A stretch of DNA of 64,000 nucleotides from NCBI GenBank assembly GCA_964461505.1, contig CAYWUW010000001.1:33792-97791 (forward strand), given 5' to 3'. Each line of letters begins with the position of its first letter. Position 1 is the stretch's first letter. Source of the DNA: an uncultured Candidatus Saccharibacteria bacterium (lineage in GTDB: Bacteria > Patescibacteriota > Saccharimonadia > Saccharimonadales > HK-STAS-PATE-42). A program made the position numbers and the translations under genes. Positions 45,459-62,919 of the stretch are shown in pieces. Under the pieces are notes generated by a model. The model was not told the origin of the DNA and did no database searches. It saw nothing but the letters and a program-made list of their open reading frames with translations.

Positions 45459-46169
45459 ATGAAGAAGCGGTTTGCGGTTTTTGATATTGATGGAACCTTA
45501 ATTCGTTGGCAACTTTATCATGCGCTTGTTGATAGGTTGGCAAAGCGTGGTTATTTGGGTGAAGGAGTTTATGAAAAACTACAAAAAGCACGGATGGATT
45601 GGAAGGTTCGGATGAGTGATGAGGGTTTTTATGAATACGAAAATGAGTTAATTAGAATTTTTAGCGAATCTGTTGAAGGTCTGGATGTTGAAGTATTTGA
45701 AGAGGTAGTAGATGAGATTTTTGAGCAATATAAAGATCAGGTTTATACTTACACGCGAGATCTAATTGCTAAGCTTAAGTCCAAAAACTATTTTTTGATT
45801 GCGATATCTGGTTCGCATAAAGAACTTGTTGAAAAGATTGCCGATTATTACGGTTTTGATGATTTTGCTGGAACAGATTACTTTCGAGAAAACTCTAAAC
45901 TTAAGAGCCAGGCTTTTGTGGCCTCTCATCATAAAAAAGAATTGCTAGAAATGATGATTAAAAAGCACAATTTAAGCTTAGATGAATCTTATGCGGTTGG
46001 AGATACGGCGAGTGATGCACCAATGCTAGGCTTAGTTAAAAATGCGGTTGCTTTTAATCCTGATAAGAAGTTGTATACTTTAGCTAAACAGAACAATTGG
46101 CAGATTGTGGTAGAAAGGAAGAACGTGGTTTATGAGTTTGAAGCCGGAAGTTCAGGAAAGGCTGATTGA
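45459..46169 (+). CDS. HAD-IB hydrolase (phosphoserine-phosphatase-like)
   Basis: FDIDGTLI, ISGS, GDTASDAPML. Confidence 0.75.
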   Translation: MKKRFAVFDIDGTLIRWQLYHALVDRLAKRGYLGEGVYEKLQKARMDWKVRMSDEGFYEYENELIRIFSESVEGLDVEVFEEVVDEIFEQYKDQVYTYTRDLIAKLKSKNYFLIAISGSHKELVEKIADYYGFDDFAGTDYFRENSKLKSQAFVASHHKKELLEMMIKKHNLSLDESYAVGDTASDAPMLGLVKNAVAFNPDKKLYTLAKQNNWQIVVERKNVVYEFEAGSSGKAD

Positions 46170-46554
46170 TCTACTCGATGAGTTAGAAGATCCGAATTGC
46201 GGGCGTTATGAGGCTATTGCTCATGTTCTAGAACATATAACTGCGCTTTATAAATCACCTTTTTATGGATGCGGTGGGGAGCCTCTTGTTTTGGAGCTTG
46301 CCCTGCTCCCTTTGTGTGTTAGATTGGGCGTGGCGGTAAAAATTGTAGAACTTGAACAGGATCTTGAAACTCCGGTGGGTAAAGAAGGTTTTGGTAAAGA
46401 AGGTTTTGATGAGGAATTAAGTTTAGCAGTAGAACATTGGGAAAATATAGAAACACTGCCGAAAGATGCATTGAGTGAAGGGATTTGGTGGTTAAAGATT
46501 ATGCCCGCAATGGTGGATGCTGGCTATAATCTAACAACTGGGGCTAGTTCTTAG
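46132..46554 (+). CDS. hypothetical acidic protein
   Basis: 140-aa ORF overlapping both neighbours; contains a 15-bp tandem duplication (GKEGF x2). Confidence 0.35.
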   Translation: MSLKPEVQERLIDLLDELEDPNCGRYEAIAHVLEHITALYKSPFYGCGGEPLVLELALLPLCVRLGVAVKIVELEQDLETPVGKEGFGKEGFDEELSLAVEHWENIETLPKDALSEGIWWLKIMPAMVDAGYNLTTGASS

Positions 46555-46970
46555 GAGTTTTGATCCATCAGGCGATTGGCTTCGGCATCGGCCAGTTTGT
46601 TGTATTCGCGCAAAACGTGGGTAAACTTAACTTGTTTGAATTCTTGAACTAATTTTTTGATTTGTTCGTAAACAACGGCGAGATCTTTATTTTTGACTTT
46701 GTAGATTCCACTCATTTGGTTAACAACCAAGAGGCTATCGAGGCGGAATTCGATTTCTTCTATTTGTAGTTCTTGGGCACGTTGGAGGGCAAAAAGCACG
46801 GCTCTGTATTCGGCTTGGTTGTTGGTGGTTACGCCTAAGAACTTGCCTCCTGTTTCTAAAACGTTTTGGCCGGTTTGATCTTGAATTACGAATCCGCTAG
46901 CACTTGGGCCTGGGTTGCCGCGGGAGCCTCCATCTGCGTTGATAATTACTTTTTTGGGGAAATCTGTCAT
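46551..46970 (-). CDS. rnhA: ribonuclease HI-type protein
   Basis: INADGGSRGNPGPSASG, NNQAEYRAVLFAL, DSLLVVNQ. Confidence 0.8.
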   Translation of the reverse strand: MTDFPKKVIINADGGSRGNPGPSASGFVIQDQTGQNVLETGGKFLGVTTNNQAEYRAVLFALQRAQELQIEEIEFRLDSLLVVNQMSGIYKVKNKDLAVVYEQIKKLVQEFKQVKFTHVLREYNKLADAEANRLMDQNS

Positions 46971-48466: not shown

Positions 48467-49267
48467 TTAAATCTTTAGGCTATAAAGTGCGGCAGCAACA
48501 GAGGTGGCAAGATTCATGCTGCTAACTCCAATTTGCATTGGTAGGCGGATTATCTTTTGAGATTTAAGCTTAAGTTCTTGAGAAATGCCGTCTCTTTCGG
48601 ATCCAAAAACTAGAATTGCATTGGCTGGAATTTGGGCCTTAAGCTTAGTGCTAAGATCTTCTCCTCTTTCGTCGAATGAGATCAAGATGGGGCTTTTCGA
48701 TTCTGGGCTTAAGATTCCTTTGCTCAGGAAGGTGGGGGTGTTTTTGATTTGGTGGATGTTGAGGGCAAATTGGAGCCCGGCAGCGGCGCGAATGGCTGTG
48801 GCGTTCCAGGGGTTTGAGCTTCCGGTTAGGATGAGTTGTTGAATTCCGGCGGCGGCGCAAACTCTAATTACGGCTCCGATGTTGCTGAGATCTTTAGGGT
48901 TATCAAGAAGGATTGTGTGGTTTTCAATAGAATCTTCATTGCTGCTTTGTTTTGGCAAGGGCAAGGTTTTTTGGGGTTTGTAGAAGATTCCGAGAACGGC
49001 TGTTCTTATTTTAGAATCTGTTAATTGATCGAAGTTTGCGAGTTCTTGGGATTCTTTTTTGAGTAGCGGTGTGATATCTGGGCAAAGTTTTTGGCTAAGC
49101 TTAAGCAAATCGGCTTTGTTTTGGGTGATTATGATTTTTGGTTTGGCCTTAAAGCGGAGGGTGTGTTTGATGGCATGGAGGCCTTCGACGAGGGCGAATT
49201 CCCCTGCTCCGGTTCTGTTTTGATCTATTAAAGATTTTATTTTTGTTAAGTTTAGTGGCTCTTGCAT
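48467..49267 (-). CDS. SPOUT (TrmH/SpoU-family) RNA 2'-O-methyltransferase
   Basis: LLDNPKDLSNIGAVIRVCAAAG, FGSERDGIS, SSMNLATSVAAALY. Confidence 0.8.
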   Translation of the reverse strand: MQEPLNLTKIKSLIDQNRTGAGEFALVEGLHAIKHTLRFKAKPKIIITQNKADLLKLSQKLCPDITPLLKKESQELANFDQLTDSKIRTAVLGIFYKPQKTLPLPKQSSNEDSIENHTILLDNPKDLSNIGAVIRVCAAAGIQQLILTGSSNPWNATAIRAAAGLQFALNIHQIKNTPTFLSKGILSPESKSPILISFDERGEDLSTKLKAQIPANAILVFGSERDGISQELKLKSQKIIRLPMQIGVSSMNLATSVAAALYSLKI

Positions 49268-49355: not shown

Positions 49356-49432
49356 GTACCCGTAGCTCAGATGGATAGAGCGTTGGCTTGCGGAGCCAGA
49401 GGCCATAGGTTCGAATCCTATCGGGTACACCA
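49356..49432 (+). tRNA. tRNA-Arg (anticodon GCG), CCA encoded
   Basis: GTACCCGTAGCTCAGATGGATAGAGCGTTGGCTTGCGGAGCCAGAGGCCATAGGTTCGAATCCTATCGGGTACACCA; anticodon loop TTGCGGA. Confidence 0.85.
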
Positions 49433-49435
49433 AGA

Positions 49436-49477
49436 CTTTCGAACGGAATTATAAAAGAAGCCTTAAGGCTTCTTTTT
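49436..49477 (+). repeat. partial family H copy (H0) including hairpin
   Basis: TTCGAACGGAAT..AAAGAAGCCTTAAGGCTTCTTTTT parallels the 3' half of H1. Confidence 0.55.
49455..49477. terminator. bidirectional intrinsic terminator
   Basis: AAGAAGCC-TTAA-GGCTTCTT flanked by A and T runs. Follows tRNA-Arg and encloses the stop of the convergent kinase gene. Confidence 0.7.
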
Positions 49478-49999
49478 GTGTAGTCTTTTAAGGCAATATT
49501 CATAGAGTTCTTCTAAGCTCTTATTGCTCGAGTCTATTATCCATTCATCTTTAATCTCGACTAAGCAGTTCAACTGATGTTCTATATTCCTTCGTCTTTC
49601 GTCTAGGTTATTGAGATCGCTGTCCCGTCCTCTGGTTGTCATTCTTTCAATAATCTTATCCTTACTTGGCGCTAGCGCCACAACCGTAGAATCAATAGAC
49701 TCTTTGTCTAACAAGTCTATATATGCGGTTAAAGGGTTTGGCGGTAGCTTATAGAGTATGAACTCGAGAATAACACTTGTACCTTCTTTAAGCATATTAA
49801 TGATGTCTGCAAAAACTTCCGATTGGACAATACTCTCTTGTTCGGGCGTACGATTACCTGTATCGAATTTAGCCTTTACCCAGTACTTATCTTCTTCGAC
49901 ATAGTTCCAGCCCAACTTCTCTGCAGTGTACTTTGCTAGAGTAGATTTGCCACTCCCTCCTGGTCCGATGATTAGCAGGACTTTACCTTTTTTACTCAT
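49463..49999 (-). CDS. P-loop NTPase/kinase (AAA_33 or chloramphenicol-phosphotransferase-like)
   Basis: LIIGPGGSGKSTLAK Walker A; 178 aa. Confidence 0.6.
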   Translation of the reverse strand: MSKKGKVLLIIGPGGSGKSTLAKYTAEKLGWNYVEEDKYWVKAKFDTGNRTPEQESIVQSEVFADIINMLKEGTSVILEFILYKLPPNPLTAYIDLLDKESIDSTVVALAPSKDKIIERMTTRGRDSDLNNLDERRRNIEHQLNCLVEIKDEWIIDSSNKSLEELYEYCLKRLHKKKP

Positions 50000-50032
50000 A
50001 GTGAAGATTATATATTAATACAGTTCCACACC

Positions 50033-50136
50033 TTCTCTTGCTATACTAACAATATCTAAATAATGTTCCGTTCGGAATACGTCTATTAAGGGATGCTAAC
50101 AGGAATCGCTAAAGAAGCCATAGGGCTTCTTTTTTT
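50033..50136 (+). repeat. family H repeat copy H1 (with terminator hairpin)
   Basis: TGCTATACTAACAATATCTAAATAATGTTCCGTTCGGAATACGTCTATTAAGGGATGCT...AAAGAAGCCATAGGGCTTCTTTTTTT. Confidence 0.85.
50111..50136 (+). terminator. intrinsic terminator-like hairpin inside H1
   Basis: AAAGAAGCC-ATA-GGGCTTCT followed by T7. Confidence 0.6.
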
Positions 50137-50161
50137 GTTTAAGCTGGTATAGTTATTAGTA

Positions 50162-51151
50162 ATGAAGAGTTTAATAAATGAGCTTAATTTTGCAAAAGAC
50201 CGTAAGTACTCGAAGGGTTTGGAAGAGAATGCGTTCGGTACATCCGAGTCATCGGTGATCATTGAAGTCATTTCAAAGAAAGTGTATCAACAGATTGGTA
50301 GCAAGCCTGAGTCTCTCAAGTTCTTTGCTGCTAGCGCCGCCTTAGTGTACGGTTTTGTATTGGCAGGTGGTCAAGAGGTTGTACTAAAAGTTTTTCCTCC
50401 CGACTGGAAGAAGGATAATCTAAAGATTTCTAGAGAGATTCAAGGACAACTGTTTGAATCTGGCTATCCTATTACAGAGCCCCTAGGTGATGTATTTGAG
50501 ATAGCTGGTACTTGCGCCACTTTAGACAGATATAAAGAAGCTTCTCCTGAGTCAGAGTTGTACAGTAGAGAATATTTAAAGAAGCTTGCGTCTGGTTTGT
50601 ATGATTTGGCAAATTTATGCTCTAAATTCAAAGTAGAAAAGCTACCCGGATCTGTTGATCAGTTTGGATGGACTGATAATGAGAGATGGGGTAAGCAAGT
50701 AAGACCAGAGATTGATTTAGATGATAATCCTGAAGGTGCTGAATGGATCGAAGAGCTTGGAGAGAGGGCACGATCTATGTCGGCAAGCCCATCCGGAAGA
50801 ACTGTTATAGCACACGATGACTGGTTGCCTCATAACGTTCGATTCGGTAAAGATTTGTCATTAGAGATTGTTTATGATTGGGATAGCTTATGTAGGGGGC
50901 TTGAAACTGTTTTTGTAGGTAAGGCCTGTCTGGCAGCTAGGTCAGAAGACATCCCTTTCTTCATAGGAGAATATGAGAAGGCCGCAGGCTATAAGTTTAA
51001 TAAAGATGAACTAAGAACTTTGGCGGGTACAGCGTTATGGATGAGGGCATTTCTGGCGAGATGGGAGCATAGCCAGAGCAAGGAGCCCAATGGCTATCTT
51101 AGGGATAGGCTGAAAAGTGATGCCGGTATTCTGGGTAAGCTTACAGAGTGA
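50162..51151 (+). CDS. aminoglycoside-phosphotransferase (APH)-fold kinase
   Basis: VIAHDDWLPHNV (HxDxxxxN) and VYDWDSL (DxD). Confidence 0.65.
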   Translation: MKSLINELNFAKDRKYSKGLEENAFGTSESSVIIEVISKKVYQQIGSKPESLKFFAASAALVYGFVLAGGQEVVLKVFPPDWKKDNLKISREIQGQLFESGYPITEPLGDVFEIAGTCATLDRYKEASPESELYSREYLKKLASGLYDLANLCSKFKVEKLPGSVDQFGWTDNERWGKQVRPEIDLDDNPEGAEWIEELGERARSMSASPSGRTVIAHDDWLPHNVRFGKDLSLEIVYDWDSLCRGLETVFVGKACLAARSEDIPFFIGEYEKAAGYKFNKDELRTLAGTALWMRAFLARWEHSQSKEPNGYLRDRLKSDAGILGKLTE

Positions 51152-51174
51152 CGGTAGTTCTAGAGCGGGTCTGT

Positions 51175-51258
51175 TTCTCCTGCTATACTAACAATATCCA
51201 GATAATATTCCGTTCGGAACACGTCTATTAAGGAACACCATTGAGATTATTCATCGAA
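51175..51258 (+). repeat. family H repeat copy H2 (no terminator)
   Basis: TGCTATACTAACAATATCCAGATAATATTCCGTTCGGAACACGTCTATTAAGGAACACC. Confidence 0.85.
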
Positions 51259-51260
51259 CT

Positions 51261-51776
51261 TTAAGAGAGTTTGTTCTTCACCCTTGCAAGATATTCATCG
51301 TGAACGTCTTTTTTGTACCAAAGTAATCTCTTTCCGCAATAGGGGTCTACTTGTTTGTGTGATGTGACCCCGTAAAATATTGGGGTAGGCTTTAGTTGAA
51401 CTCTAAATTCAGTTTGTATATTGTACTTATTCTGTAGGTGTTTGACTAAATCTACAACCGCTTCGAACTGAATATTGTTTCTATCTAGTGACTTGGAGTT
51501 CAAGCCTTGTATCTCGATTCCTATGCTACTGTTATTTGCTCCTCTTGCGTGGTGACATAAGACGGTTGGGTCTGAGACAAGCTGGTATATATCCCCCTCT
51601 TTTGTCACGGCAAATTGAACTGAGGTCTTCCACCTCTTTAAGCCTTTAATCAGATACTCTATCCCTCCGAACCAAGATGGGACTTGCCACCAATGCAGTA
51701 CAATTGAGGTGGGGACTATTCTCTGCGATTGATCTACCCACGAAAGATTTATCTTACTTATCTTCATCAACTCCAA
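51261..51776 (-). CDS. N-acetylmuramoyl-L-alanine amidase (Amidase_2/PGRP fold)
   Basis: IVLHWW, GANNSSIGIEIQG, VTSHKQVDPYCGK. Confidence 0.65.
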   Translation of the reverse strand: MELMKISKINLSWVDQSQRIVPTSIVLHWWQVPSWFGGIEYLIKGLKRWKTSVQFAVTKEGDIYQLVSDPTVLCHHARGANNSSIGIEIQGLNSKSLDRNNIQFEAVVDLVKHLQNKYNIQTEFRVQLKPTPIFYGVTSHKQVDPYCGKRLLWYKKDVHDEYLARVKNKLS

Positions 51777-51799
51777 TAATATCAGACTTCTGAGTTGAT

Positions 51800-51901
51800 A
51801 TCCCCTGCTATACTAACGATATCTAGATAATATTCTATTCGGGATGTGTCTATTAAGGGATGCTATTGAGATTACTAAAGAAGTCTTAAAGCTTCTTTTT
51901 G
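51800..51901 (+). repeat. family H repeat copy H3 (with terminator hairpin)
   Basis: TGCTATACTAACGATATCTAGATAATATTCTATTCGGGATGTGTCTATTAAGGGATGCT...AAAGAAGTCTTAAAGCTTCTTTTT. Confidence 0.85.
51878..51900 (+). terminator. intrinsic terminator-like hairpin inside H3
   Basis: AAGAAG-TCTTAAAG-CTTCTT followed by T run. Confidence 0.45.
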
Positions 51902-51914
51902 TTATGATTAAGTT

Positions 51915-52670
51915 ATGAATCAAATGGCTGTTAGCAACAATGACATTGTTGCTAGGTGCAGACTTATACTTACGGCTTACTCTAACGGCGGACTAGGCGA
52001 TATCACAATGCCTGAAGATTGTGCACCAGATTTTGGTACTGACACCGAAGGAAGGCTAGCCTTCTTCACACTGCCAATGGCTCTCAACTATCAACGTAAT
52101 AGCACTGTACTTTGGCAGTCCGCCCTTCTAACTTGGAAAGATAAAGGAACGCGTGATGTATTCGACTTAGCTGCAGTCAGTAAAATGACTGAAGAAGAGC
52201 TACGGAAAAAGTTGGTTAAATATAAATTAGCCCTACAGCCTAATAAGCACATTAATTCCTGGTCTAGGATTGCCGAAACCGTATATGAGAAATGGGGTTC
52301 TTTCAAGGTATTCCTTAATGAGATGGATAATGATTACCTAAAGTTGAGAGAGTGTATTCAGGGTGGTATGAAATCAGGCTTTCCATATCTTGCCGGTCCT
52401 AAGTTATTTAACTACTGGTGCTATGTTCTAACGAGATATTGCGGGGTTCCACTTAAAAATAGCGAGTTAGTCGAGATTGCTTTAGGCTCACACGTTACAA
52501 GGTGCTCCGTTCTACTCGGTGTTATTACTCAAGACAAGGCTAATAACCTATCTAAAGAAGTGATTTATGCAAAATGGAGAGGAGTGCTTGAGGGTTCAGG
52601 GATTAATCCAATTGATTTACACTCCCCATTATGGTTTTGGAGTAGGAATGGTTTCTTGTTAAAAGTATAA
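51915..52670 (+). CDS. hypothetical protein, possibly HhH-GPD-like DNA glycosylase fold
   Basis: weak resemblance only (LAGPKLFNYW); 251 aa. Confidence 0.3.
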   Translation: MNQMAVSNNDIVARCRLILTAYSNGGLGDITMPEDCAPDFGTDTEGRLAFFTLPMALNYQRNSTVLWQSALLTWKDKGTRDVFDLAAVSKMTEEELRKKLVKYKLALQPNKHINSWSRIAETVYEKWGSFKVFLNEMDNDYLKLRECIQGGMKSGFPYLAGPKLFNYWCYVLTRYCGVPLKNSELVEIALGSHVTRCSVLLGVITQDKANNLSKEVIYAKWRGVLEGSGINPIDLHSPLWFWSRNGFLLKV

Positions 52671-52707
52671 GCTTTATAGACCTAAGGTGTACCTTTTAAG
52701 TCTCATT

Positions 52708-52786
52708 TTCCCCTGCTATACTAACAATATCTAGATAGTATTCCGTTCGGAACACGTTTATTAAGGTATGTTGTTAGGGTTACTGG
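52708..52786 (+). repeat. family H repeat copy H4 (no terminator)
   Basis: TGCTATACTAACAATATCTAGATAGTATTCCGTTCGGAACACGTTTATTAAGGTATG. Confidence 0.85.
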
Positions 52787-52863
52787 ATATGTTAGTTTGA
52801 TTATTCATTTTAAAGTGTTGTAGTATTAAGCTTAAGTTAGTTCTATAAATGAGGAAATGAAAT

Positions 52864-53475
52864 ATGGAAGCGCCAAGGTTTGAACAGGAACTCACAGATT
52901 TAGCTTCTGGAATGGGGGGGGCTTTAGAGCTTAGCCACTATGTGGTTGAGTCATCGTCTAGCCCAGATGCTAAGCCTCTAAGTCAGCAGGCTGCTGAAGC
53001 ATGGGGAGAAATAGATGATTCAGCTGGAGATAGAGCAGTGTTGCAGAAATTTGGGTTTGGTCCTGATTGGCAACAGATCTGTAGCAAGGGTAATGCCACT
53101 AATAGGCCAATGGTTGTTGTACCTGCGGTTAATACTGAAGCTATAAGGGATGGTCTAAATTATATACCTGCTAGAAATCACGTAGCAACAATAGTAGAAT
53201 ACCAAATCCTTGTGGCTGTGCTGGGCCATTACGTTGGGATGGATGAAGACTTGGCTAAACAACGTGCAGACGAGCTTTATGCTGTGGCCAGGAGTGAGGT
53301 TTATGTGTCCGAAGGAGGGCAGGTTATAGTTGGGGGTAAAGTGATAGTATTGCCCGGTGGAAAGGGTGAGCTACATCTACAGCGTTTAGCCCCTCAGGGA
53401 TCGTGCAAAGATCTTCAAATTGTTCTTTCTCCTGCAGGTTCAAGTGTTATACCTTATAAAAAACCTGCTTCTTGA
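52864..53475 (+). CDS. hypothetical protein
   Basis: 203-aa ORF, GC-richer, GAGGAAATGAAAT before the ATG; no domain recognised. Confidence 0.45.
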   Translation: MEAPRFEQELTDLASGMGGALELSHYVVESSSSPDAKPLSQQAAEAWGEIDDSAGDRAVLQKFGFGPDWQQICSKGNATNRPMVVVPAVNTEAIRDGLNYIPARNHVATIVEYQILVAVLGHYVGMDEDLAKQRADELYAVARSEVYVSEGGQVIVGGKVIVLPGGKGELHLQRLAPQGSCKDLQIVLSPAGSSVIPYKKPAS

Positions 53476-53480
53476 ATGGG

Positions 53481-53966
53481 TTAAGAAGTCTTCTTTTTGT
53501 CTAGCTTATCTAGCTTTAGGCCTTGGACCAAAAAATAAATTACTGCTGCAGTGGCAATTAAGGTTAAAAGTGAGTTGGCGGCTGAGCCCCAAGCTATAAT
53601 AAGTTCTTTGCCGCTGCGTTCTAGGCCGGTGTGCCAAGCAAGAGTGCTAAGATCGGATCCGCCTAAAATAAAGCCGATAATTGGGTTGATGAATCCATCA
53701 ACAATTGCTTTAACGGTTGCTCCAGAGGCGACTCCGATTGCTAAACCTACGGCTAAGCCGATTACGCCCTGTTCTCTTATAAAATCGGTAAACCCAGAGA
53801 TTTGACCTTTGGTTCTTGAACCAACGCTTTTGAGATCTTTTTTTAGTTCGCCTTCTAGTTCGGCAAGTTCTTGCTTGGTTTTTTTACCGGTTCTTTCGAT
53901 ATCTTTTTTTATTTTTTGTTCTAAGTTCACTAGAGTCTTTTTTTGGTTATTCTTTTGTGTAGCCAT
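53481..53966 (-). CDS. mscL: large-conductance mechanosensitive channel MscL with Lys-rich N-terminal extension
   Basis: FIREQGVIGLAVGLAIGVASG..IVDGFINPIIG core preceded by about 55 extra residues. Confidence 0.8.
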   Translation of the reverse strand: MATQKNNQKKTLVNLEQKIKKDIERTGKKTKQELAELEGELKKDLKSVGSRTKGQISGFTDFIREQGVIGLAVGLAIGVASGATVKAIVDGFINPIIGFILGGSDLSTLAWHTGLERSGKELIIAWGSAANSLLTLIATAAVIYFLVQGLKLDKLDKKKTS

Positions 53967-54039: not shown

Positions 54040-54597
54040 CTAAAGTTTGAGTTTGCGCGCGATTGTATCGATGGGATTTCTAGATGGATTGGTTTGGGGT
54101 AAGCATTTTTGTAGAATTTCTAAAATTTGTGCAATTAGTTTTTTATCTTTTAGATAAAATGTGATTGGCATAGAGGTCCTTTTGGCTCCTACAAGTGTAA
54201 TTTGAGTTTGATCTTCGAATTCCTCTACCCAGTAATAGGCAAAATTGAGCATACTAAAGTTCTGTTTGTTAACGTGAACGGATGAAGATGTGAGGCTGTA
54301 AGTTTTGATTTCTGGTTTGCGGGCGGAATAAAAAATTAAGCTTAGCGAAGCGATAAAAATGATGGCTGGGCTAATTAAATCTTTGCGGCCAGAAATTATC
54401 CAAGGGATTGCGGCTATAACTGCTCCGCCAAAGATTAAGCTTAAATACCAAAAAAAGCTTTTTTCTTGGTAGAAGAATTCTTCGGCTTGCCATTCTAGCT
54501 TGGGGTTTTCTTTACTAAAATCTAGGGGCGGATTGGTTGGTTGCATTGTGTTTTTTGTTCTAGCTAGTTTTAAGTTATACGCTTTTTGGAGGTTCAT
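54040..54597 (-). CDS. membrane protein, hypothetical (two TM helices plus PH-like C-terminus)
   Basis: 185 aa; start overlaps the sortase stop region (operon-like). Confidence 0.5.
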   Translation of the reverse strand: MNLQKAYNLKLARTKNTMQPTNPPLDFSKENPKLEWQAEEFFYQEKSFFWYLSLIFGGAVIAAIPWIISGRKDLISPAIIFIASLSLIFYSARKPEIKTYSLTSSSVHVNKQNFSMLNFAYYWVEEFEDQTQITLVGAKRTSMPITFYLKDKKLIAQILEILQKCLPQTNPSRNPIDTIARKLKL

Positions 54598-56366: not shown

Positions 56367-57302
56367 ATGCTAGATTTTTTGTATTACTGCGCGGTTATTG
56401 TTCTGGCTTATTTTGTTGGGGTTTTATTGAACTTAGATTTTGGCTTTGCCGGAGCCAGCGAATACGAACTTAAAAGGCGGGCCCGCGAAGGTGATAGTTT
56501 TGCTAAAAAAGAGGCCTGGGTCAAAAAACATCTTGAGGAATTTAAGTTTAGTATTTTGCTGCTAGTTCTGTTTTTGGAGGCTGGTTTAATCTTTTTAGTT
56601 AGTTTAAGGTTTAAGATCTGGCTGGCTTTGCTGGCTCTAGGCTTATCTTTTTTGGTGCTACGCTTTGTGGCTTTGCAGAACTTTTCTAAAAAGATGTTTG
56701 CTTTTTGGCGCAAGCAGGTGGTGTTAAAAGCTCAACTGTTGGTTAAGTTATTTAAGAATTTGGGCAGGCCGCTGTTTAAGAAATCTTTAAAAGATGTTGA
56801 GTTGAACAAGGCTTATTATTCTGAAGAGGAGTTTGCCTACAAGTTTGAGATGGATTCTGATGTTTTGAGCGAGGTTCTTAGAAACAGAGTTGCTCGTGCT
56901 TTGGCGGGTTCTAGAACTAAGGCTAAAGATGTGATGTTGGCGATTGAAAAAGTTCCTAAGGTTGATTTGAACTTAAGCTTAACGCCAATTGTTTATGATG
57001 AGTTGCATCAAAAGGGTCACGATATGGCGCTGGTTTTTCAGGGTGCGGAAACGAATTTGGTTGGTTTGTTGCATCTTTCTGGTTCGGAGGCTGTAGCGCA
57101 AATGAATGTGAGCAGTGCTATTCGGGTTGGCGATAAAATGGAGCAAGGTTTGCAATATATTAAGGATGAAGTTTGTTTGGATGATTTGGTAGAAGGGTTT
57201 TTGAAGGGTGGTCAGAATGCAGTTTTGGTGACGGGTTCTGGTGGCCAAGTTACCGGAGTTGTTACAGCAAGAAAACTTTTGGCGTGGTTAAGTGGAGCTT
57301 AA
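56367..57302 (+). CDS. CNNM/DUF21 membrane domain plus CBS-pair protein
   Basis: N-terminal TM domain with ASEYELKRRAREGD, C-terminal CBS-like repeats. Confidence 0.55.
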   Translation: MLDFLYYCAVIVLAYFVGVLLNLDFGFAGASEYELKRRAREGDSFAKKEAWVKKHLEEFKFSILLLVLFLEAGLIFLVSLRFKIWLALLALGLSFLVLRFVALQNFSKKMFAFWRKQVVLKAQLLVKLFKNLGRPLFKKSLKDVELNKAYYSEEEFAYKFEMDSDVLSEVLRNRVARALAGSRTKAKDVMLAIEKVPKVDLNLSLTPIVYDELHQKGHDMALVFQGAETNLVGLLHLSGSEAVAQMNVSSAIRVGDKMEQGLQYIKDEVCLDDLVEGFLKGGQNAVLVTGSGGQVTGVVTARKLLAWLSGA

Positions 57303-58889
57303 GGTTAAGTTTAAGCTTGAATGGCCATAAAGACGTATTGTTTTAGAGCTGCAACGAGTGGGTTTCTGTAGTTTAATACCAAACTCCAGTCCACTGTTTT
57401 TGCCGTGGCCTATTACGGAGTGTTCAATAGCTCTATCGGATTCTGCTCTTAACATTCCGTCTTCGATTAAGCCTTGATCAAAGAGCATCTTAGTTGTCCA
57501 TAAGATTAGATGTTTAAACTGTTCTGCGGATACATCGTAAATACTATCGGCTTGCACTTCTATTCCTATAGTATTCCCATTCCCCGCATCTTCTCTACCT
57601 TTTTTTCCGCCATCGATTACGCCATTTCTGATGTGCCCTGCTTTGGTGGCCGGATCTCTTGTGAGTTGCCATATCTCTGATGGGTTGTTATCGCTCATCA
57701 TAAACTGAGTGCTTGCACCGCTGTTGTTAGCCCAGCTTTCAATTTGATCTGTAAGCGTAATTTCATGAGACCTTCCCTTTGGAGCGGCATCAGTTTCATT
57801 GTCTGAGGTGGAAACTCCATTCGCCCAGAGGTGCCAAATAAGATATCTTACGGTAATTGAAGTGCCATTATAGTACTTATTATATTTTGCAGGACCGATT
57901 AGCTCTTCTACATATTTTGATCTATCTTCGATACCGCTTTGTTCAAACTTTGCATAATCTTCAATAGTAAGTGATTTTAGAGCTTTTTTAATTGTTTGGA
58001 CAAGCGCTTTATCTCGTGGTTCATTAAGTTCGCTAAAATCTATAGTTTCAACGTCTATGGCATTTTTTTCTGGAGGTAGCGAAGGCTCATCTTTTGGGCT
58101 GTTTGGGTTGGTGTCTCCACTTACATTACCGGTTATTTTTTGTACAAGATCTATGTAGTTGACTACCAAGCCTAGCCACTCTTCACCGGTGGAATATCTT
58201 AGCTCGCCGGGCTCGTCGCTATCAACCATAAGCCTAGCAACTTCTTTTGGATCACGTCCGCCGTTATTTAGATAACCTATAACGTCAGCATACCTGTAAG
58301 ATCCATCTTGGTTTTGGAAATAGATCTTTTTCTGGAAATCTGCAAAAGAGTCTTCGGGGTTTTTGTATTTTCTAAAATCTCTGGGGTGTTGGACTCTCAC
58401 CGACCCATCTGGGTATGTAAAAAGTACAGTAAACTGATCACCATATTTCTTTTGTAGTTCCGGGACGCTTTCTGCCGCAACCTGCTCATCTGTCATTTTA
58501 TCGGGATAAACATCGCCTTTCCATCCGTCTTTTGCTACGATACCATGCATGTTGTTTGCCTTTGTGGCTAGTTCACTGGTTCCTGAATCGGATTCGTGCA
58601 TACCGACTGCTAAAAATAACTCATACGGAAGGGGCATCTTGGGGTCTTCGGCTAATCTTTCGGATATTTCTACATAATCTGAGATGAATTTTGTAGTTTT
58701 TTCTGGGTTAGTTAGGATGTCTTTAGAGTCTTGCTTAGTGTCCTCTGTCTTTGTGTCACAACTTCTTGCACCTAGTGCTATTAATAAGGTGGCTGTTGCC
58801 GCTAGGCCTAAGAGTTCTCTGCGGGTTACCCCATATTCTCTATTACTATGTGGATCAGTTGCTCGTGGGTGTTCTTGTGAATTTGGCAT
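57288..58889 (-). CDS. secreted bifunctional peptidoglycan hydrolase (glucosaminidase-like plus Amidase_2-like)
   Basis: TRRELLGLAATATLL Tat-like signal, LAVGMHESDSGTS..NNMHGI, C-terminal GNTIGIEVQA / VIGHG. Start set at ATG 58889. Confidence 0.65.
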   Translation of the reverse strand: MPNSQEHPRATDPHSNREYGVTRRELLGLAATATLLIALGARSCDTKTEDTKQDSKDILTNPEKTTKFISDYVEISERLAEDPKMPLPYELFLAVGMHESDSGTSELATKANNMHGIVAKDGWKGDVYPDKMTDEQVAAESVPELQKKYGDQFTVLFTYPDGSVRVQHPRDFRKYKNPEDSFADFQKKIYFQNQDGSYRYADVIGYLNNGGRDPKEVARLMVDSDEPGELRYSTGEEWLGLVVNYIDLVQKITGNVSGDTNPNSPKDEPSLPPEKNAIDVETIDFSELNEPRDKALVQTIKKALKSLTIEDYAKFEQSGIEDRSKYVEELIGPAKYNKYYNGTSITVRYLIWHLWANGVSTSDNETDAAPKGRSHEITLTDQIESWANNSGASTQFMMSDNNPSEIWQLTRDPATKAGHIRNGVIDGGKKGREDAGNGNTIGIEVQADSIYDVSAEQFKHLILWTTKMLFDQGLIEDGMLRAESDRAIEHSVIGHGKNSGLEFGIKLQKPTRCSSKTIRLYGHSSLNLTLSST

Positions 58890-58961
58890 AATTCTTAGAT
58901 TATAACATGTAATGCTGTTATAAGTCAACAAGCTGCAGTAATATTTGTATATCATCTTCTT

Positions 58962-58970
58962 TGGTATAAT
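58962..58970 (+). promoter_or_regulatory. extended -10 box TGGTATAAT
   Basis: 10 nt before ATG 58981. Confidence 0.6.
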
Positions 58971-58980
58971 TAAGCTTAGT

Positions 58981-60759
58981 ATGGATAAAAGAATTTTAGC
59001 GGAGGCGACCTCTGGTTTGGTGGGGCAAGAGGTTTACCTGATGGGCTGGGCTAACTCTCGGCGTGATCATGGTGGGGTCATTTTTATAGATCTTCGTGAT
59101 GAATCTGGCTTAGTGCAGTTAACTATTCATCCAGATCAACAAGCGGCTTTTAAAACTGCGGAATCTGTGCGTGATGAATACGTGCTTAAGCTTAAGGGTA
59201 AGGTCGTTGAACGCGATAAAGATCTTATCAATCCGAATCTTGAAACTGGAAAAGTTGAAGTAGTTGCTTCTGAGCTTGAGATCTTGAACAAGTCGGAGCC
59301 TCTCCCCTTTTCTGTTGGTTTAAATAAATCTGAAGATGAAAATGTTGGTGAGGACGTACGTCTAAAGTACAGATATCTAGATCTTCGTCGTTCAGAAATG
59401 TCTAGGATGCTCACTAGAAGACATCAAATGCTCAAGTTTATTAGAAGCTGGATGGACGAGAAGGACTTCATTGAGGTTAATACTCCAATATTAGCTAACT
59501 CTAGTCCCGAAGGAGCAAGAGATTTTCTGGTCCCTTCAAGAATGTATCCCGGTAAATTCTTTGCACTTCCGCAAGCTCCGCAGCAGTTTAAGCAACTTTT
59601 GATGGTTGGTGGGATTCCAAGATATTATCAGATTGCTCCGTGTTTCCGTGATGAAGATGCTCGCGCGGATAGAAGCCCTGGTGAGTTTTATCAGCTGGAT
59701 CTAGAGATTGCTTTTGCAGAGACAGATGAAGTTGTATTCCAGCTGATGGAACCTTTGTTTATTAAGCTTACGGAGGATTTTGCTGGTAAAAAGGTTTTGC
59801 AAAAACCGTTCCTACGGATTCCGTATGCGGAGGCGATGAGTAAATATGGAACTGATAAGCCTGATCTTCGCTTTGGAATGGAACTTGTTGATCTTTCGGA
59901 AGAACTAGAAAATACGGAATTTGGGGTTTTTGCTGGAGCTTTAAAAAATGGTGGAGTTATTAAGGCAATTTGTGTTAAGGGTGGCGCAAGTTTAACTCGC
60001 TCTGAGATTGATAAGTTTACGGATATCGCTAAGCAAAACGGTGCTGGAGGCCTTGCCTACATTAACCTTAAAGATGGTGAGATTCAGTCTCCTATTGCAA
60101 AGTTCTTGAATGATGAAGAGCTGGGCTTGATTATTGAGAAAACTGGGGCCAAGGACGGTGACTCAATCTTCTTTGGAGCTGATAGCATCAATATTGTGAA
60201 TAGGGTTCTTGGAGTTCTTAGAAACGAGTTTGCAGATCACTTTAAGCTTAAAGATCCGAACGTTGTTGCTTGGGCATGGATAGTGGACTTTCCTATGTAT
60301 GAGTTTGACGAAAAGCAACAGAAGATTGACTTTATGCATAACCCATTCTCTTGGCCGCAAGGAGGACTTGAAGCTCTGAATACACAAGACCCGCTTGATA
60401 TAAAGGCTTACCAGTACGATATTGTTGCAAATGGTTTCGAACTTTCTAGTGGTGCGATTAGAAACTATAACCCAGAGATTATGTACAAAGCTTTTGAGAT
60501 TGTAGGTTATAGCAAAGAGCACGTTGACAAGAACTTCGGTGCGATGATCAATGCATTTAAGTTTGGGGCTCCACCTCATGGAGGGTTTGCTCCTGGGGTT
60601 GAGCGAATGCTGATGGTTTTAGAAGGTAAAGAAAACATAAGAGAAGTTGTCGCCTTCCCTAAGAATGGTTCTGGTATTGATTTGATGATGAACAGCCCGA
60701 GTGTGGTTGAGCAAGTTCAGCTGGATGAATTGGGAATTAAGGTTGTGGTTGAGGATTAA
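58981..60759 (+). CDS. aspS: aspartate--tRNA ligase
   Basis: OB fold (GWANSRRDHGGVIFIDLRD), QSPQ-like LPQAPQQFKQ, FRDEDARADR, GGFAPGVERM. Confidence 0.93.
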   Translation: MDKRILAEATSGLVGQEVYLMGWANSRRDHGGVIFIDLRDESGLVQLTIHPDQQAAFKTAESVRDEYVLKLKGKVVERDKDLINPNLETGKVEVVASELEILNKSEPLPFSVGLNKSEDENVGEDVRLKYRYLDLRRSEMSRMLTRRHQMLKFIRSWMDEKDFIEVNTPILANSSPEGARDFLVPSRMYPGKFFALPQAPQQFKQLLMVGGIPRYYQIAPCFRDEDARADRSPGEFYQLDLEIAFAETDEVVFQLMEPLFIKLTEDFAGKKVLQKPFLRIPYAEAMSKYGTDKPDLRFGMELVDLSEELENTEFGVFAGALKNGGVIKAICVKGGASLTRSEIDKFTDIAKQNGAGGLAYINLKDGEIQSPIAKFLNDEELGLIIEKTGAKDGDSIFFGADSINIVNRVLGVLRNEFADHFKLKDPNVVAWAWIVDFPMYEFDEKQQKIDFMHNPFSWPQGGLEALNTQDPLDIKAYQYDIVANGFELSSGAIRNYNPEIMYKAFEIVGYSKEHVDKNFGAMINAFKFGAPPHGGFAPGVERMLMVLEGKENIREVVAFPKNGSGIDLMMNSPSVVEQVQLDELGIKVVVED

Positions 60760-60761
60760 GC

Positions 60762-61439
60762 TTAGACTGGGCTAGTATATCTTTTTTGCTCACAGAAGAT
60801 GTCGAGCTCTTCTACTATCTCTGTATGAACTTCATTAACGTCTTTTGTCTGGCCAACTGTCTCAGGGTGAATTGTGACGACTTGGATGCCCGAGGTTCTG
60901 CTGTAGTTGGCCAGCGTATTTGCCATCTGCCCAAAGGCTTCTGCTACTCTTGCGTGAAAGTCTCTACCGGCTTGTTCGAATCTATCTAGTTCTCGGTCCA
61001 TCCTTCTAGCTAATTCTTCTGGCGGTGGAGGAGTTAGTAGGAACATTAGATCTGGCATAATTAGATTGGGGTTCATTAAGTTTATATCTAGTATGTGCTG
61101 CTCACCAAGGCCTCTTCCTGCCCCCTGATAAGCTATGCTTGAGACGAAAGTTCTATCAGAAATAACGTGCCTTCTTGCTTTGAGGCTAGGCTTAACGACT
61201 TCTGCCATGTGTTGTGCTCGATCGGCAGCCATAAGGTAAACTTCGGACATTGGATCGAGTTCGCCAGTTTCTGGGCTCAAGAGAATCTCTCTAAGCTTAG
61301 CTCCAGCTAGAGTTCCACCAGGCTCTCTCGTTAAAATTGCAGAGCTGCCGATTCTACTTGTAAGCAGCATAGCTTGTGTGGATTTTCCACTTCCTTCGCC
61401 TCCTTCAAAAGCAATGTAAAGTGGTTTGTTTTGTGGCAT
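60762..61439 (-). CDS. tmk: dTMP kinase
   Basis: IAFEGGEGSGKSTQ P-loop. ATG 61439 is preferred over the longer ORF start at 61523, which overlaps the upstream gene. Confidence 0.85.
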   Translation of the reverse strand: MPQNKPLYIAFEGGEGSGKSTQAMLLTSRIGSSAILTREPGGTLAGAKLREILLSPETGELDPMSEVYLMAADRAQHMAEVVKPSLKARRHVISDRTFVSSIAYQGAGRGLGEQHILDINLMNPNLIMPDLMFLLTPPPPEELARRMDRELDRFEQAGRDFHARVAEAFGQMANTLANYSRTSGIQVVTIHPETVGQTKDVNEVHTEIVEELDIFCEQKRYTSPV

Positions 61440-61464
61440 ATAGGCTTTAATCACTCCTTTCTTG

Positions 61465-62820
61465 TCATTTTTCTGTGATGTCGTGATCTCCTCTTTTGGT
61501 GTCGAAAGGGGCACCGGATTCATCTAAATGGAGGGTTAAATTCAAGGTTTCTTTGAGTAGCCTTCCGGCTTCCAGGGCTCTTGTTCTGAGGGTTGGGTGG
61601 ACGGCAGTTGTTGAACGGAGCTCTAGCAAGTAAGTTAAGCCGGGCAAACCGCCGGTGACTTGGCATGGGATTCTGTAGCCCATTGGTATTGCATACTGGG
61701 CCAATCTTGGATCTATATTGCTCGTAGATATTCTGCTAGCAATGCTTCCGATTAGCCCCTGCGCTTCTGCCCTTAAATCTTCTGGCATTTGTTCTAGGTA
61801 CCAAGGTTCGAACCCTAACTCAGTTCCAAGCAATGGCATGCGGATTGTTACGGCGCGGTGCCTTTGAATATCTCGGTAACTGGCAAAATCTAGCGGAAAA
61901 CTTAAGCTTAAGGCTCCAAGCTCGTCGAGGAATTTTGGGAGTTCATTTTTGGCTAGACGTGAGGCCATTAGCCCTCGACACTTTTCAAGTTCTTCCCGAT
62001 TAAGTTTAGTTAAGTCAATTCGGAGCTCTTCTGGCATACTTGCTGTATCGAGTAGGTACTTATCATTTAGCCATGCCTGAGTGTACGCCTCTTGCTCGGG
62101 GTATCTTTTTTGTGGATCAAATGAGTTTGGATGCGCCTGAACAAGAGCTGCTTCTAGGGAGTCTGCTATGGAGCGCACCTCCGGCAAAGGATGATTTCTT
62201 AGAATGAGTAGGCGATCTCTAGCTTGTCTTAAATCTACATTCCAAGCAACGTTGGTAGAGGCTCCGGCTGGCAGTAAGCTTCTTAAAATATCAAAAGCCC
62301 TAGCATTAATTGCCTTTTCCCACTTGACACCTTCGTTGTTAACATCTGGGAACTGCTTTTTAAGGTGTTCGACTGTAGGTTCCATACCAGTGATGTATAG
62401 AGCTCTTAGCTCCTCTTGGATATTGCCTATAAGCCCAGTGTTTTTTGGAACTATAAAAGGTTGTTTACTGAAATCGATGTACCTGGTGGAGCATTCTTGG
62501 CCTCTGTATAGCGGGTAGTCTTGGATTGCTTTCGCGGCGAGCATGCTAATTCCTTCTACAAAGATAGCTGTGTTACCACAATCTCCAATGCTACCATGAC
62601 CATAGCCAACATAAAACTGGGACATAAAGTCGCCACTGCCCTTTTCTGCCAGCTTTGCTAGGTGGCTAGCTATTCCCGCAGGGCTTCGAGAATGCAGTGC
62701 CATAAGCATGGCTTGATCTTCTGGGCTGATCGTAGCGCCCGTACCAAGCACGAAGATTTGAGCGCCTTTTACTCCATTATCTACGGGAACTTCAGTGTGC
62801 TTTAGTGTTTCGGTGGCCAT
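61465..62820 (-). CDS. ThyX-like FAD-dependent thymidylate synthase, long two-lobe form (tentative)
   Basis: GHGSIGD..ECSTRY in the first half and RDIQRHR in the second; immediately upstream of tmk. Confidence 0.5.
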   Translation of the reverse strand: MATETLKHTEVPVDNGVKGAQIFVLGTGATISPEDQAMLMALHSRSPAGIASHLAKLAEKGSGDFMSQFYVGYGHGSIGDCGNTAIFVEGISMLAAKAIQDYPLYRGQECSTRYIDFSKQPFIVPKNTGLIGNIQEELRALYITGMEPTVEHLKKQFPDVNNEGVKWEKAINARAFDILRSLLPAGASTNVAWNVDLRQARDRLLILRNHPLPEVRSIADSLEAALVQAHPNSFDPQKRYPEQEAYTQAWLNDKYLLDTASMPEELRIDLTKLNREELEKCRGLMASRLAKNELPKFLDELGALSLSFPLDFASYRDIQRHRAVTIRMPLLGTELGFEPWYLEQMPEDLRAEAQGLIGSIASRISTSNIDPRLAQYAIPMGYRIPCQVTGGLPGLTYLLELRSTTAVHPTLRTRALEAGRLLKETLNLTLHLDESGAPFDTKRGDHDITEK

Positions 62821-62919
62821 AATCCTGTAGATCTTTTTTTAGCTCAACTTCGGCTTTCTTTTTTATTAAGCTTAATTGTAGTTTAGGTTTGGTGCTTCTG
62901 GCTAGGTTTGTTGTGAGGT

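Follow-up and report, generated by a model that had tools for sequence, protein, structure and literature searches.

Integron gene-cassette arrays, including clusters of attC sites lacking an integrase (CALINs), consist of single genes, each with a recombination-site-like element at one end that travels with the gene on its left; new sequence sits next to a fixed anchor site, and cassette content and order differ between close relatives. A locus next to a tRNA-Arg gene in a Patescibacteria (CPR) bacterium with a tiny genome, described here, resembles such arrays in these respects, and it also lacks a nearby integrase, as CALINs do. However, its anchor is the 3' end of a tRNA gene and not an attI next to intI, and its repeat, designated H, is a 65-bp element conserved in sequence rather than in structure, with no attC-type imperfect palindrome and no RYYYAAC/GTTRRRY cores. 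Its genes lie in both orientations with their own terminators and promoter-like motifs, and no IntI is linked to it. A canonical integron or a CALIN is thus contradicted by the features tested and is regarded as highly improbable.

Integrative elements targeting tRNA genes, and the islands they build by tandem integration, such as the tycheposons of Prochlorococcus (10.1101/2020.12.28.424599), share with this locus the position at the 3' end of a tRNA gene, the repetition of the tRNA end between successive units and the setting of a streamlined genome with few other mobile elements; in the model proposed below, newer units would also push older ones outward. In contrast to these islands, the units found here are about 0.5-1 kb in size and hold a single gene with no integrase or replication module, only 9 nt of the tRNA are repeated instead of the usual tens, and the repeat is dominated by a 56-nt non-tRNA element shared by all units. 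The pdif modules of Acinetobacter plasmids are Xer-dependent small gene modules bounded by short conserved recombination sites, moved by a recombinase encoded elsewhere, with genes in either orientation. The pdif sites are, however, 28-bp dif-like sites of alternating orientation, whereas H copies are 65 bp long, all direct, without dif-like architecture, and are located on the chromosome next to a tRNA. The minimal mobile elements and repeat-flanked exchange sites of naturally competent Neisseria are comparable in that alternative gene cassettes sit between conserved flanks in competent bacteria whose genomes are rich in a short iterated word, but they exchange by homologous recombination in the flanking genes and have neither an internal punctuating repeat nor a fixed joint at a tRNA end.

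Organisation of the locus

The analysed stretch of DNA, hereafter the window, is 64,000 nucleotides long. The interval following the same tRNA-Arg was compared in nine related genomes or contigs: the window and the loci designated L002, L004, L006, L008, L014, L016, L019 and L021. The features of the window are as follows.

48467..49267 (-): SpoU/TrmH methyltransferase (Pfam PF00588), the conserved proximal flank of the variable interval; homologues lie next to tRNA-Arg in all related loci.
49356..49432 (+): tRNA-Arg(GCG), identified with ARAGORN and Rfam, the anchor of the array; its last 10 nt, GGGTACACCA (49423-49432), are shared with the ends of H, which makes it the proposed left partner of recombination (like attB or attI).
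49433..49444 (+): AGACTTTCGAAC, the 'A' module, which also follows the tRNA in L002, L004 and L008, and follows an H copy in L014.
49445..49479 (+): H0, a trailer plus intrinsic-terminator hairpin (GGAATTATAAAAGAAGCCTTAAGGCTTCTTTTTGT), homologous to the tails of H1 and H3 and to the native tRNA trailer of L019 and L021.
49463..49999 (-): cassette gene 1, a P-loop kinase (AAA_33, nucleoside-monophosphate-kinase-like), with its 5' end facing H1.
50034..50098 (+): H1 core (65 nt), ending in GGGATGCTA.
50099..50138 (+): H1 tail, a spacer plus terminator hairpin, followed by a TGGTATAGT extended -10-like motif 8 nt before the APH ATG.
50162..51151 (+): cassette gene 2, an APH-fold phosphotransferase (PF01636) with no close PDB relative.
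51176..51240 (+): H2 core, ending in the tRNA-like GGAACACCA and lying between two convergent genes.
51241..51251 (+): TTGAGATTATT, the 'F' module, the left end of the amidase cassette; in L006 the same sequence follows the tRNA directly (window 51232-51916 aligns with L006 9887-9202).
51261..51776 (-): cassette gene 3, Amidase_2 (N-acetylmuramoyl-L-alanine amidase fold), with the likely start at the ATG at 51767 and the 5' end facing H3; it is 80% identical in amino acids to the L006 amidase.
51801..51865 (+): H3 core, ending in GGGATGCTA; the H to the right of the amidase in L006 has the same ATGCTA variant.
51866..51914 (+): H3 tail, an F module plus terminator hairpin plus TGTTATGAT (extended -10-like) 6 nt before the ATG; in L021 the same module follows the tRNA directly, in front of the homologous gene (window 51865-52675 aligns with L021 9951-10758, 80% identity).
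51915..52670 (+): cassette gene 4, a 251-aa protein with a predicted HhH-GPD fold (DNA-glycosylase/QNG1-like; confident model, pLDDT 92), from a family widespread in CPR and DPANN.
52709..52773 (+): H4 core, ending in GGTATGTTG (the tRNA-like end changed by transitions).
52864..53475 (+): terminal variable gene, a 203-aa near-ORFan with no H to its right.
53481..53966 (-): MscL, either distal flank or an old cassette; it also lies next to the conserved flank gene in L019 but is absent from L004, L006, L008 and L014.
54040..54597 (-): conserved 185-aa membrane protein, the distal flank of the variable interval, followed by sortase and L25.

The original prediction, that four copies of a repeat and a partial copy after tRNA-Arg punctuate five unrelated genes, was confirmed as an observation. 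A repeat search returned a four-copy direct family at 50034-50109, 51176-51251, 51801-51876 and 52709-52784, all on the + strand and 76-82% identical to the reference copy over 76 nt. A 54-nt consensus found two copies with at most 3 mismatches, against 0 in 100 shuffles. The partial copy, H0, belongs to a 37-nt family (49445-49481, 50102-50138 and 51868-51904; 78-81% identical) composed of a short spacer, the hairpin AAAGAAGCC..GGCTTCTTT and a T-run, which follows the tRNA, H1 and H3. The gene assignments also held. The claim that the block lacks the lineage-specific word TAAGCTTA had to be corrected, since two copies are present (51136 and 52827) against 9.8 expected from the rest of the window (P=0.003), so the block is depleted and not devoid; when pooled, the array DNA contains 3 copies against 18.5 expected (P=1e-5) and in this respect differs from the rest of the genome.

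H is not an RNA gene or a tRNA pseudogene, as no Rfam match, no significant fold and no covariation were found, and, apart from its last 9 nt, H is no more similar to the tRNA than shuffled sequence. Only these last 9 nt and the trailer match the tRNA locus, so that H is more than the copy of the tRNA junction that had been proposed: the other 56 nt are an independent, highly conserved element with promoter-like features on both strands. H is conserved more than neighbouring genes, its copies being 81-95% identical between genomes, whereas core genes are 66-74% identical in nucleotides.

Variability of the interval among related genomes

Seven of the nine genomes or contigs carry H, with 15 distinct copies in the window, L002, L004, L006, L008, L014 and L016, all in tRNA orientation, while L019 and L021 have none. 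No copy lies elsewhere in about 307 kb comprising the window and the related loci, a sample that does not cover the whole genomes, and a scan of a genome collection hit only the homologous locus of one Patescibacteria MAG, plus one chance match. The interval is hypervariable and holds at least 30 genes across the nine genomes, of which only the amidase (window and L006) and the HhH-GPD gene (window and L021) are shared. Thus, on both points named beforehand as capable of refuting the original prediction, conserved gene order and occurrence of H upstream of ordinary core genes, the outcome was in its favour within the sequences examined. The interpretation as a whole was partly supported: the central idea of a cassette array built at an att site next to the tRNA, with the tRNA-distal junction duplicated, gained support, while the strict integron analogy, the reading of H as a mere junction copy and the suggested theme of antibiotic resistance or conflict did not. 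The cargo across genomes is heterogeneous and includes kinases, APH, GNAT, amidase, HD, DUF218, Bac_transf, the HhH-GPD protein and ORFans, and only one weak PADLOC hit was found.

The same cassette occurs after different left partners with an identical junction. The amidase is joined as H2..ACACCA/TTGAGATTATT in the window and as tRNA..ACACCA/TTGAAATTATT in L006, and the HhH-GPD gene as H3/TTGAGATTACT-terminator in the window and as tRNA..ACACCA/TTGAAATTATT-terminator in L021. Conversely, the trailer beginning with AGACTTTCGAAY follows the tRNA in the window, L002, L004 and L008, but follows the CACCA end of a copy designated H14b in L014. H belongs to the gene on its left, since the rare ATGCTA variant sits to the right of the amidase in both the window and L006, although the next gene differs. 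L016 and L021, whose flanks are 92-99% identical, differ by 7.06 kb versus 0.85 kb, beginning within 2 nt of the tRNA 3' end, which represents a strain-level replacement. In addition, four independent metagenome contigs end 74-108 bp upstream of SpoU, that is, at the tRNA-Arg/array, as population heterogeneity at the locus would cause.

L004 has the layout of a textbook single insertion (tRNA/A, two genes, H..ACACCA/F, flank), and L019 and L021 look like near-empty sites, with tRNA/F plus terminator and no H. The attL/attR layout of L004, together with the tandem integration at tRNA genes, with partial tRNA copies between elements and degenerated remnants, documented for tycheposons (10.1101/2020.12.28.424599), might suggest that the arrays are decayed remains of ordinary integrase-carrying islands or prophages that inserted serially into tRNA-Arg and later lost the integrase and other backbone genes, leaving cargo genes and attR scars. 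This seems very unlikely, since none of the arrays examined in nine genomes retains any integrase fragment, units are almost always one gene, the repeated part of the tRNA is very short, and the 56-nt part of H is the same in all units and genomes, which would require one element family that always loses everything but cargo.

Proposed mechanism of cassette exchange

The best explanation, to which we assign a probability of about 0.55, is that the interval between tRNA-Arg(GCG) and the conserved membrane-protein/sortase block is a dedicated gene-exchange platform in one clade of Patescibacteria, where cassettes are exchanged by site-specific recombination at the tRNA CCA end, with H as the cassette-borne site. 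Each cassette usually consists of one gene with H on its tRNA-distal side, and in 8 of the 15 copies H ends in CACCA, in its fullest form GGTACACCA, which copies the last 9 nt of the tRNA, (GG)NACACCA. In this view, a recombinase encoded elsewhere in the genome, most likely a tyrosine recombinase, would exchange strands at or in the CACCA core, so that any two sites, tRNA end or H end, could recombine; insertion of a circular cassette at the tRNA end would push older cassettes outward, and recombination between two sites would excise or delete cassettes. That would give the four junction types seen: tRNA/F (like attB), tRNA/A (like attL), H/F (like attR) and H/A (like attP). The repeats, their confinement to this locus in the sequence examined, the junction identities and the strain-level replacement are established by the analysis, while the enzymology, the circular intermediates and the promoter activity of H are inferred.

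Several findings do not fit this model easily. The original prediction had noted that no integrase or transposase is visible in the window; no integrase, resolvase or transposase domain was found in the window ORFs scanned, which did not directly include six ORFs of at least 110 aa at 46132-46970 and 57288-63693, and none appears in the precomputed Pfam lists of the genes within 10 kb of the site in L004, L006, L008, L016, L019 and L021. No free element, phage or plasmid carrying H was found in the searches made. The last variable gene has no H on its distal side in six of the seven H-bearing arrays, including that of the window (L002 is cut off before its end), L004 being the exception. Seven of the 15 copies do not end in CACCA: three end in ATGCTA, one in ATGTTG and one in TACCA, and two are truncated. 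Their cores are no less conserved than the others (Mann-Whitney p=0.86), therefore selection on the H core does not depend on the proposed crossover site, which points to a promoter or regulatory role. Since only two cassettes are shared between genomes, differential loss from a larger ancestral array also remains possible.

Another, though less likely, explanation is a hot spot of homologous recombination, where H and the tRNA trailer are conserved regulatory intergenic elements that, being repeated and conserved between lineages, act as homology arms, and cassettes are swapped, deleted or duplicated by RecA-dependent recombination of DNA taken up by natural transformation, without a dedicated recombinase. 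DprA is encoded in the window (35578-36441), and Saccharibacteria are reported to be naturally competent (PMC10633639). The 65-nt H cores are 81-95% identical between genomes, and the tRNA trailer and the long H tails share up to about 50 nt, so that some junctions could arise by homologous unequal crossing-over. The absence of a linked recombinase and the conservation of the H core irrespective of the CACCA end also agree with this reading, which is not excluded. However, the left breakpoints of exchanged segments fall at one fixed position, immediately 3' of the CCA-like end, in at least 12 distinct junctions whose sequences on both sides are otherwise unrelated, for example tRNA body versus H core on the left and A, F or unique sequence on the right. 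A junction such as H14b..CACCA/AGACTTTCGAAT, set against tRNA..CACCA/AGACTTTCGAAC, has only 5 nt of shared sequence to its left, which is too short for RecA, and homologous recombination explains the reshuffling of existing junctions but not how they first formed.

Probable promoter function of H

H probably also serves as a portable bidirectional promoter/operator. Sigma-70-like hexamers were detected on the minus strand (TTAATA-18-TATTAT; listed for H2, H3 and H4), while CTGCTA-17-TAnnAT and TGCTATACT were read directly from the sequence of the plus strand. Two conserved palindromes (TATCTAGATA and ATTCCGTTCGGAAT) are of the kind bound by dimeric regulators.

It is possible, but unlikely, that H is simply a bidirectional promoter/operator family for a small regulon of accessory genes, with an incidental tRNA-like end, and that the genomes differ by differential loss and ordinary indels in a non-essential region. 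The hexamers, the palindromes and the core conservation are in line with this. On the other hand, H2, the L004 copy, H6b and H14b point into the 3' end of a convergent gene, and H2 has no gene start on either side. A promoter explains neither why 8 of 15 copies end in the CACCA of the tRNA nor why cassettes are found interchangeably after the tRNA or after an H with the same joint, and the confinement of H within the 307 kb also speaks against this reading. Loss alone would need an ancestral array of dozens of genes, and the TAAGCTTA depletion argues for imported DNA.

All five reverse-oriented cassette genes have their 5' end 24-50 nt from an H, and the putative minus-strand promoter faces every one of them. 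In L008 and L014, truncated H copies abut a forward ATG. The position of these 5' ends and the truncated copies are likewise in line with a promoter family. Forward genes are preceded by a terminator plus an extended -10-like motif placed 6-9 nt before the ATG, which suggests leaderless mRNAs.

The repeat array downstream of tRNA-Arg

The gene array lies downstream of tRNA-Arg(GCG) and is punctuated by a family of direct repeats (H elements), which a repeat search recovered as four copies, all on the + strand and 76-82% identical to the reference copy over 76 nt. A 54-nt consensus of the family never occurs in shuffled sequence. A second family of 37 nt joins the sequence just after the tRNA to the tails of H1 and H3, and consists of a short spacer, the hairpin AAAGAAGCC-NNNN-GGCTTCTTT and a T-run; the H1 copy was called as a terminator by a terminator scan. 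The features of the locus are:

49356-49432 (+), tRNA-Arg(GCG)
49445-49481, copy of the 37-nt family just after the tRNA
50034 (+), start of H1
51176 (+), start of H2
51801 (+), start of H3
52709 (+), start of H4
(-), P-loop kinase of the AAA_33 family
(+), APH
(-), Amidase_2
51915-52670 (+), 251-aa protein modelled at pLDDT 92 as an HhH-GPD glycosylase-like fold
52864-53475 (+), 203-aa near-ORFan
53481-53966 (-), MscL

The observation of the original prediction, an array of unrelated genes punctuated by repeats next to tRNA-Arg, is real, and the ORFs between the repeats are as it described. Its claim that the block lacks the palindromic 8-mer TAAGCTTA needs softening, since this word occurs twice in the array against 9.8 expected (P=0.003). 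In the whole window it occurs 147 times in 64 kb (3.2 expected), about 2.4 per kb; it is common in the related loci L004 and L006 (1.3 per kb) but rare (0.3 per kb or less) in the more distant relatives L008, L014, L016 and L019. It is, therefore, a lineage-specific highly iterated palindrome, reminiscent of cyanobacterial HIP1 or of DNA uptake sequences. The GC content does not distinguish the array from its flanks.

The same site in related genomes

Exact-protein look-ups found no record of the SpoU and APH of the window, and MscL gave only a 1-kb contig identical to the window, so that the locus was compared with relatives rather than with strains of the same species. A scan of 185,579 species genomes with an H pattern hit one Patescibacteria MAG at the homologous SpoU-tRNA-Arg locus (L002) and one chance match. 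Homologues of SpoU (best 64% identity) led to the loci L004, L006, L008, L016 and L019, a profile of the distal flank protein led to L014, and a homologue of the HhH-GPD gene led to L021. Another locus, L015, shares the flank gene but has been rearranged and has no tRNA-Arg or H nearby. Three look-ups of SpoU homologues returned contigs that stop at the locus and gave no array content; four independent metagenome contigs (L010, L011, L012 and L020) end 74-108 bp upstream of the SpoU gene, which is at the tRNA-Arg/array, suggesting that assemblers break here because of population heterogeneity or the repeats.

In the main clade the frame is conserved, with SpoU and tRNA-Arg on one side and a 160-185-aa membrane protein, sortase and L25 on the other. 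The interval between them is different in every genome, as follows:

L004: Bac_transf plus a 243-aa protein
L006: Amidase_2, HD_3, a 150-aa and a 162-aa protein
L008: APH and DUF218
L014: GNAT, a 165-aa, a 349-aa and a 98-aa protein
L002: AAA kinase, a hydrolase and at least one more gene
L019: one P-loop protein plus MscL
L016: about ten genes
L021: the HhH-GPD gene alone

Only two genes recur between genomes, the amidase (window/L006, 80% aa identity) and the HhH-GPD gene (window/L021, 84% aa identity). Loci L016 and L021 are 92-99% identical on both sides, yet carry 7.06 kb and 0.85 kb, respectively, beginning within 2 nt of the tRNA end.

An nhmmer profile of H found 15 distinct copies, all inside these intervals and in the orientation of the tRNA, and none anywhere else in about 307 kb of window plus loci. 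Conserved gene order and H copies outside the array had both been named beforehand as outcomes that would speak against a cassette array, and neither was found in this material. Confinement to one locus and one orientation within this 307 kb does not agree with dispersed small repeats of the MITE or REP type, many copies of which are scattered through a genome in both orientations, often with terminal inverted repeats or target duplications. Attempts to find a free element carrying H gave nothing: one H pattern had no match in metagenome contigs or in viral contigs, a second H pattern and a pattern of the joint between H and the A sequence described below had none in viral contigs, and blastn of H3 plus its tail had none in phages or plasmids. 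A possible degenerate H after the HhH-GPD gene in L021 was not convincing.

Anatomy of H, its joints and putative expression signals

The H copies align without gaps over 65 nt, with the consensus TCCCCTGCTATACTAACAATATCTAGATAATATTCCGTTCGGAATACGTCTATTAAGGGACACCA, which holds two palindromes, TATCTAGATA and ATTCCGTTCGGAAT. Copies from different genomes are 81-95% identical, although the surrounding core genes are only 66-74% identical at the nucleotide level. A distinct H subtype (..TTCGAAAC.TATCAATTAGAGGACACCA) is shared by two distantly related genomes, L002 (138-210, -) and L016 (3354-3428, -); H variants do not cluster by genome, and thus H types appear to move between lineages or to be old paralogues. 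H is not an RNA gene: there is no Rfam match even at permissive thresholds, the fold energies are not significant, and the RNAalifold consensus is -3 kcal/mol with no covariation. It is also not a tRNA pseudogene, since its similarity to the tRNA is no better than that of shuffled sequence once the last 9 nt are removed. The last 9 nt of the fullest copies, GGTACACCA, are those of the tRNA, and eight of the 15 copies end in CACCA.

Just after the CCA-like end, the sequence falls into a few classes, each found both after the tRNA and after an H. The F class (TTGARATTAYT, often followed by the terminator and then TGTTATGAT and an ATG) follows the tRNA in L006, L014, L019 and L021, and follows H2, H3, the second L002 copy and the L004 copy. 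The A class (AGACTTTCGAAY...) follows the tRNA in the window, L002, L004 and L008, whereas in L014 it follows a copy of H (H14b) that ends in CACCA. The amidase block of the window (51232-51916) aligns with L006 from the last 9 nt of the tRNA onward, and the HhH-GPD block (51865-52675) aligns with L021 from the last base of the tRNA onward. The same cassettes, therefore, sit behind an H in one genome and directly behind the tRNA in another, with the same joint. Locus L004 has the layout expected of one insertion into a tRNA followed by F: the tRNA followed by A, two genes, an H ending in ACACCA followed by F, and the flank. Loci L019 and L021 look like almost empty sites. The rare ATGCTA variant of the H end lies to the right of the amidase in both the window and L006, although the next gene differs; H therefore belongs to the gene on its left, as an attC belongs to its cassette.

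The hairpins after the tRNA and in the H tails differ in stem sequence between genomes, with compensating changes, but keep the stem and the T-run, as intrinsic terminators do. In seven of eight forward genes behind such a tail (window 50128-50164 and 51890-51917; L002, L014, L021 and L006), an extended -10-like motif, TGnTAnnnT, ends 6-9 nt before the ATG, right after the hairpin, suggesting leaderless mRNAs. On the minus strand of H, the scan found TTAATA-18-TATTAT in three window copies, and all five reverse-oriented cassette genes, in the window, L006 and L014, have their 5' end 24-50 nt from an H. The plus strand carries CTGCTA-17-TAnnAT and TGCTATACT, and two truncated H copies abut a forward ATG directly. 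Most copies have a gene start on one side or the other, but H2 lies between two gene ends and four copies face a gene's 3' end. A pure promoter family would not explain the tRNA-like end, these convergent placements or the confinement to one locus in the sequence scanned. The possibility that copies without the CACCA end are decaying relics was rejected, because the number of core mismatches is the same in both classes; this points to a function of the core that does not depend on the joint.

A putative tRNA-anchored cassette system

The fixed joint, the interchangeability of the tRNA end and the H end as left partners, the four junction combinations, which match attB, attP, attL and attR, and the replacement at the strain level are most simply explained by site-specific recombination at the CCA end, with H as the cassette-borne site and the tRNA as the chromosomal anchor. 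The repeats, their joints and the replacement were seen directly in the sequences, while the recombination itself, excision of cassettes as circles with reintegration, and promoter activity of H are inferred. The interpretation of the original prediction, a cassette array that is integron-like or built by tandem accretion at an att site, is partly supported, and on better evidence than was then at hand. No integrase or other recombinase domain was found among the window ORFs scanned (six ORFs at 46132-46970 and 57288-63693 were not scanned directly) or in the Pfam lists for genes within 10 kb of the site in six related loci. The main rival is homologous exchange after natural transformation, with which the presence of a DprA (DNA-processing protein A) gene (35578-36441, -) is consistent; Saccharibacteria are reported to be competent (PMC10633639). 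Such exchange can reshuffle existing joints but does not explain how joints with only 5-9 nt of shared sequence arose.

Integrons have an IntI-type tyrosine recombinase gene next to the insertion site, which CALINs do not need; single ORFs with one site each and arrays that differ between genomes are common to these systems and the array. However, attC sites are imperfect palindromes with R''/L''-L'/R' cores (RYYYAAC ... GTTRRRY), conserved in structure and variable in sequence, whereas H is conserved in sequence, has only a 5-bp hairpin and carries no core motifs. Integron cassettes are mostly promoterless, co-oriented and read from Pc, while two of the five window cassette genes are reversed, and terminator hairpins and -10-like motifs precede the forward genes. 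A canonical integron is excluded by the features tested. Integrative islands of the tycheposon type (10.1101/2020.12.28.424599) share the tRNA logic: the partial tRNA and the trailer are both repeated here, although the repeat of tRNA sequence is unusually short. Decayed islands of this type do not share the single-gene units or the uniform 56-nt non-tRNA element, and no integrase gene of the kind that such elements encode (tyrosine or large serine recombinase) was found in the arrays of any of the nine genomes compared. IS200/IS605-derived PATEs (HUH single-strand transposition), which have similar subterminal hairpins at both ends and a TnpA in the genome, do not fit either, since the left-end hairpins, predicted to be terminators, vary in sequence, are absent from several cassettes and are unrelated to the H hairpin, and no Y1 transposase was found in the window.

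The locus combines tRNA-anchored tandem accretion with integron-like single-gene cassettes, and H probably has a dual role as recombination site and promoter; literature searches found no description of it. More tentatively, and somewhat less likely than not, it may represent a previously undescribed gene-capture system of CPR bacteria, in which the 3' CCA end of a functional tRNA-Arg gene plays the part of attI, the 65-bp sequence-conserved element plays the part of attC and also supplies a bidirectional promoter, and single-gene cassettes are moved by an unlinked and possibly novel recombinase. This would be a non-integron solution to the same problem, in organisms otherwise almost devoid of mobile elements, and a second, independent invention of integron-like gene capture. 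Patescibacteria have genomes below 1 Mb, few recognisable mobile elements and an epibiotic lifestyle, and such a platform would be a concrete, testable route for gene flux in a group whose means of acquiring accessory genes are largely unknown. It would also provide practical tools for the few cultivable Saccharibacteria, namely a natural landing pad for inserted genes and compact insulated expression modules (terminator, extended -10 and a start codon 6-9 nt downstream).

The cargo includes small-molecule kinases and acetyltransferases, cell-wall amidases and a glycosylase-fold protein, which hints at the functions under fluctuating selection on the host surface, but the proposed antibiotic-resistance or conflict theme is unproven. 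PDB sequence searches did not assign substrates to the kinase, which resembles nucleoside-monophosphate kinases only weakly, or to the APH, which has no close solved relative, and PADLOC gave only weak P-loop hits for the kinase. The 251-aa protein belongs to a very large, well-conserved family (2,297 hits; 52-61% identity across Patescibacteria and DPANN archaea) with no solved relative by sequence; its confident model has an HhH-GPD fold closest to QNG1/DUF2419, MagIII and MutY. A weak twister-P3 ribozyme match inside its coding region (52561-52619, +; 26 bits against a gathering score of 39.9, E=0.03) is probably due to chance. For the 203-aa near-ORFan, a word-indexed search of 5.8 billion proteins found only the protein itself, and an exhaustive HMMER search of 1.8 billion representatives found four weak relatives. 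The MscL of the window has an N-terminal lysine/glutamate-rich extension of about 50 aa (161 aa, against 111 aa in L019), and its last codons overlap a half-copy of the terminator-like sequence (53486-53504).
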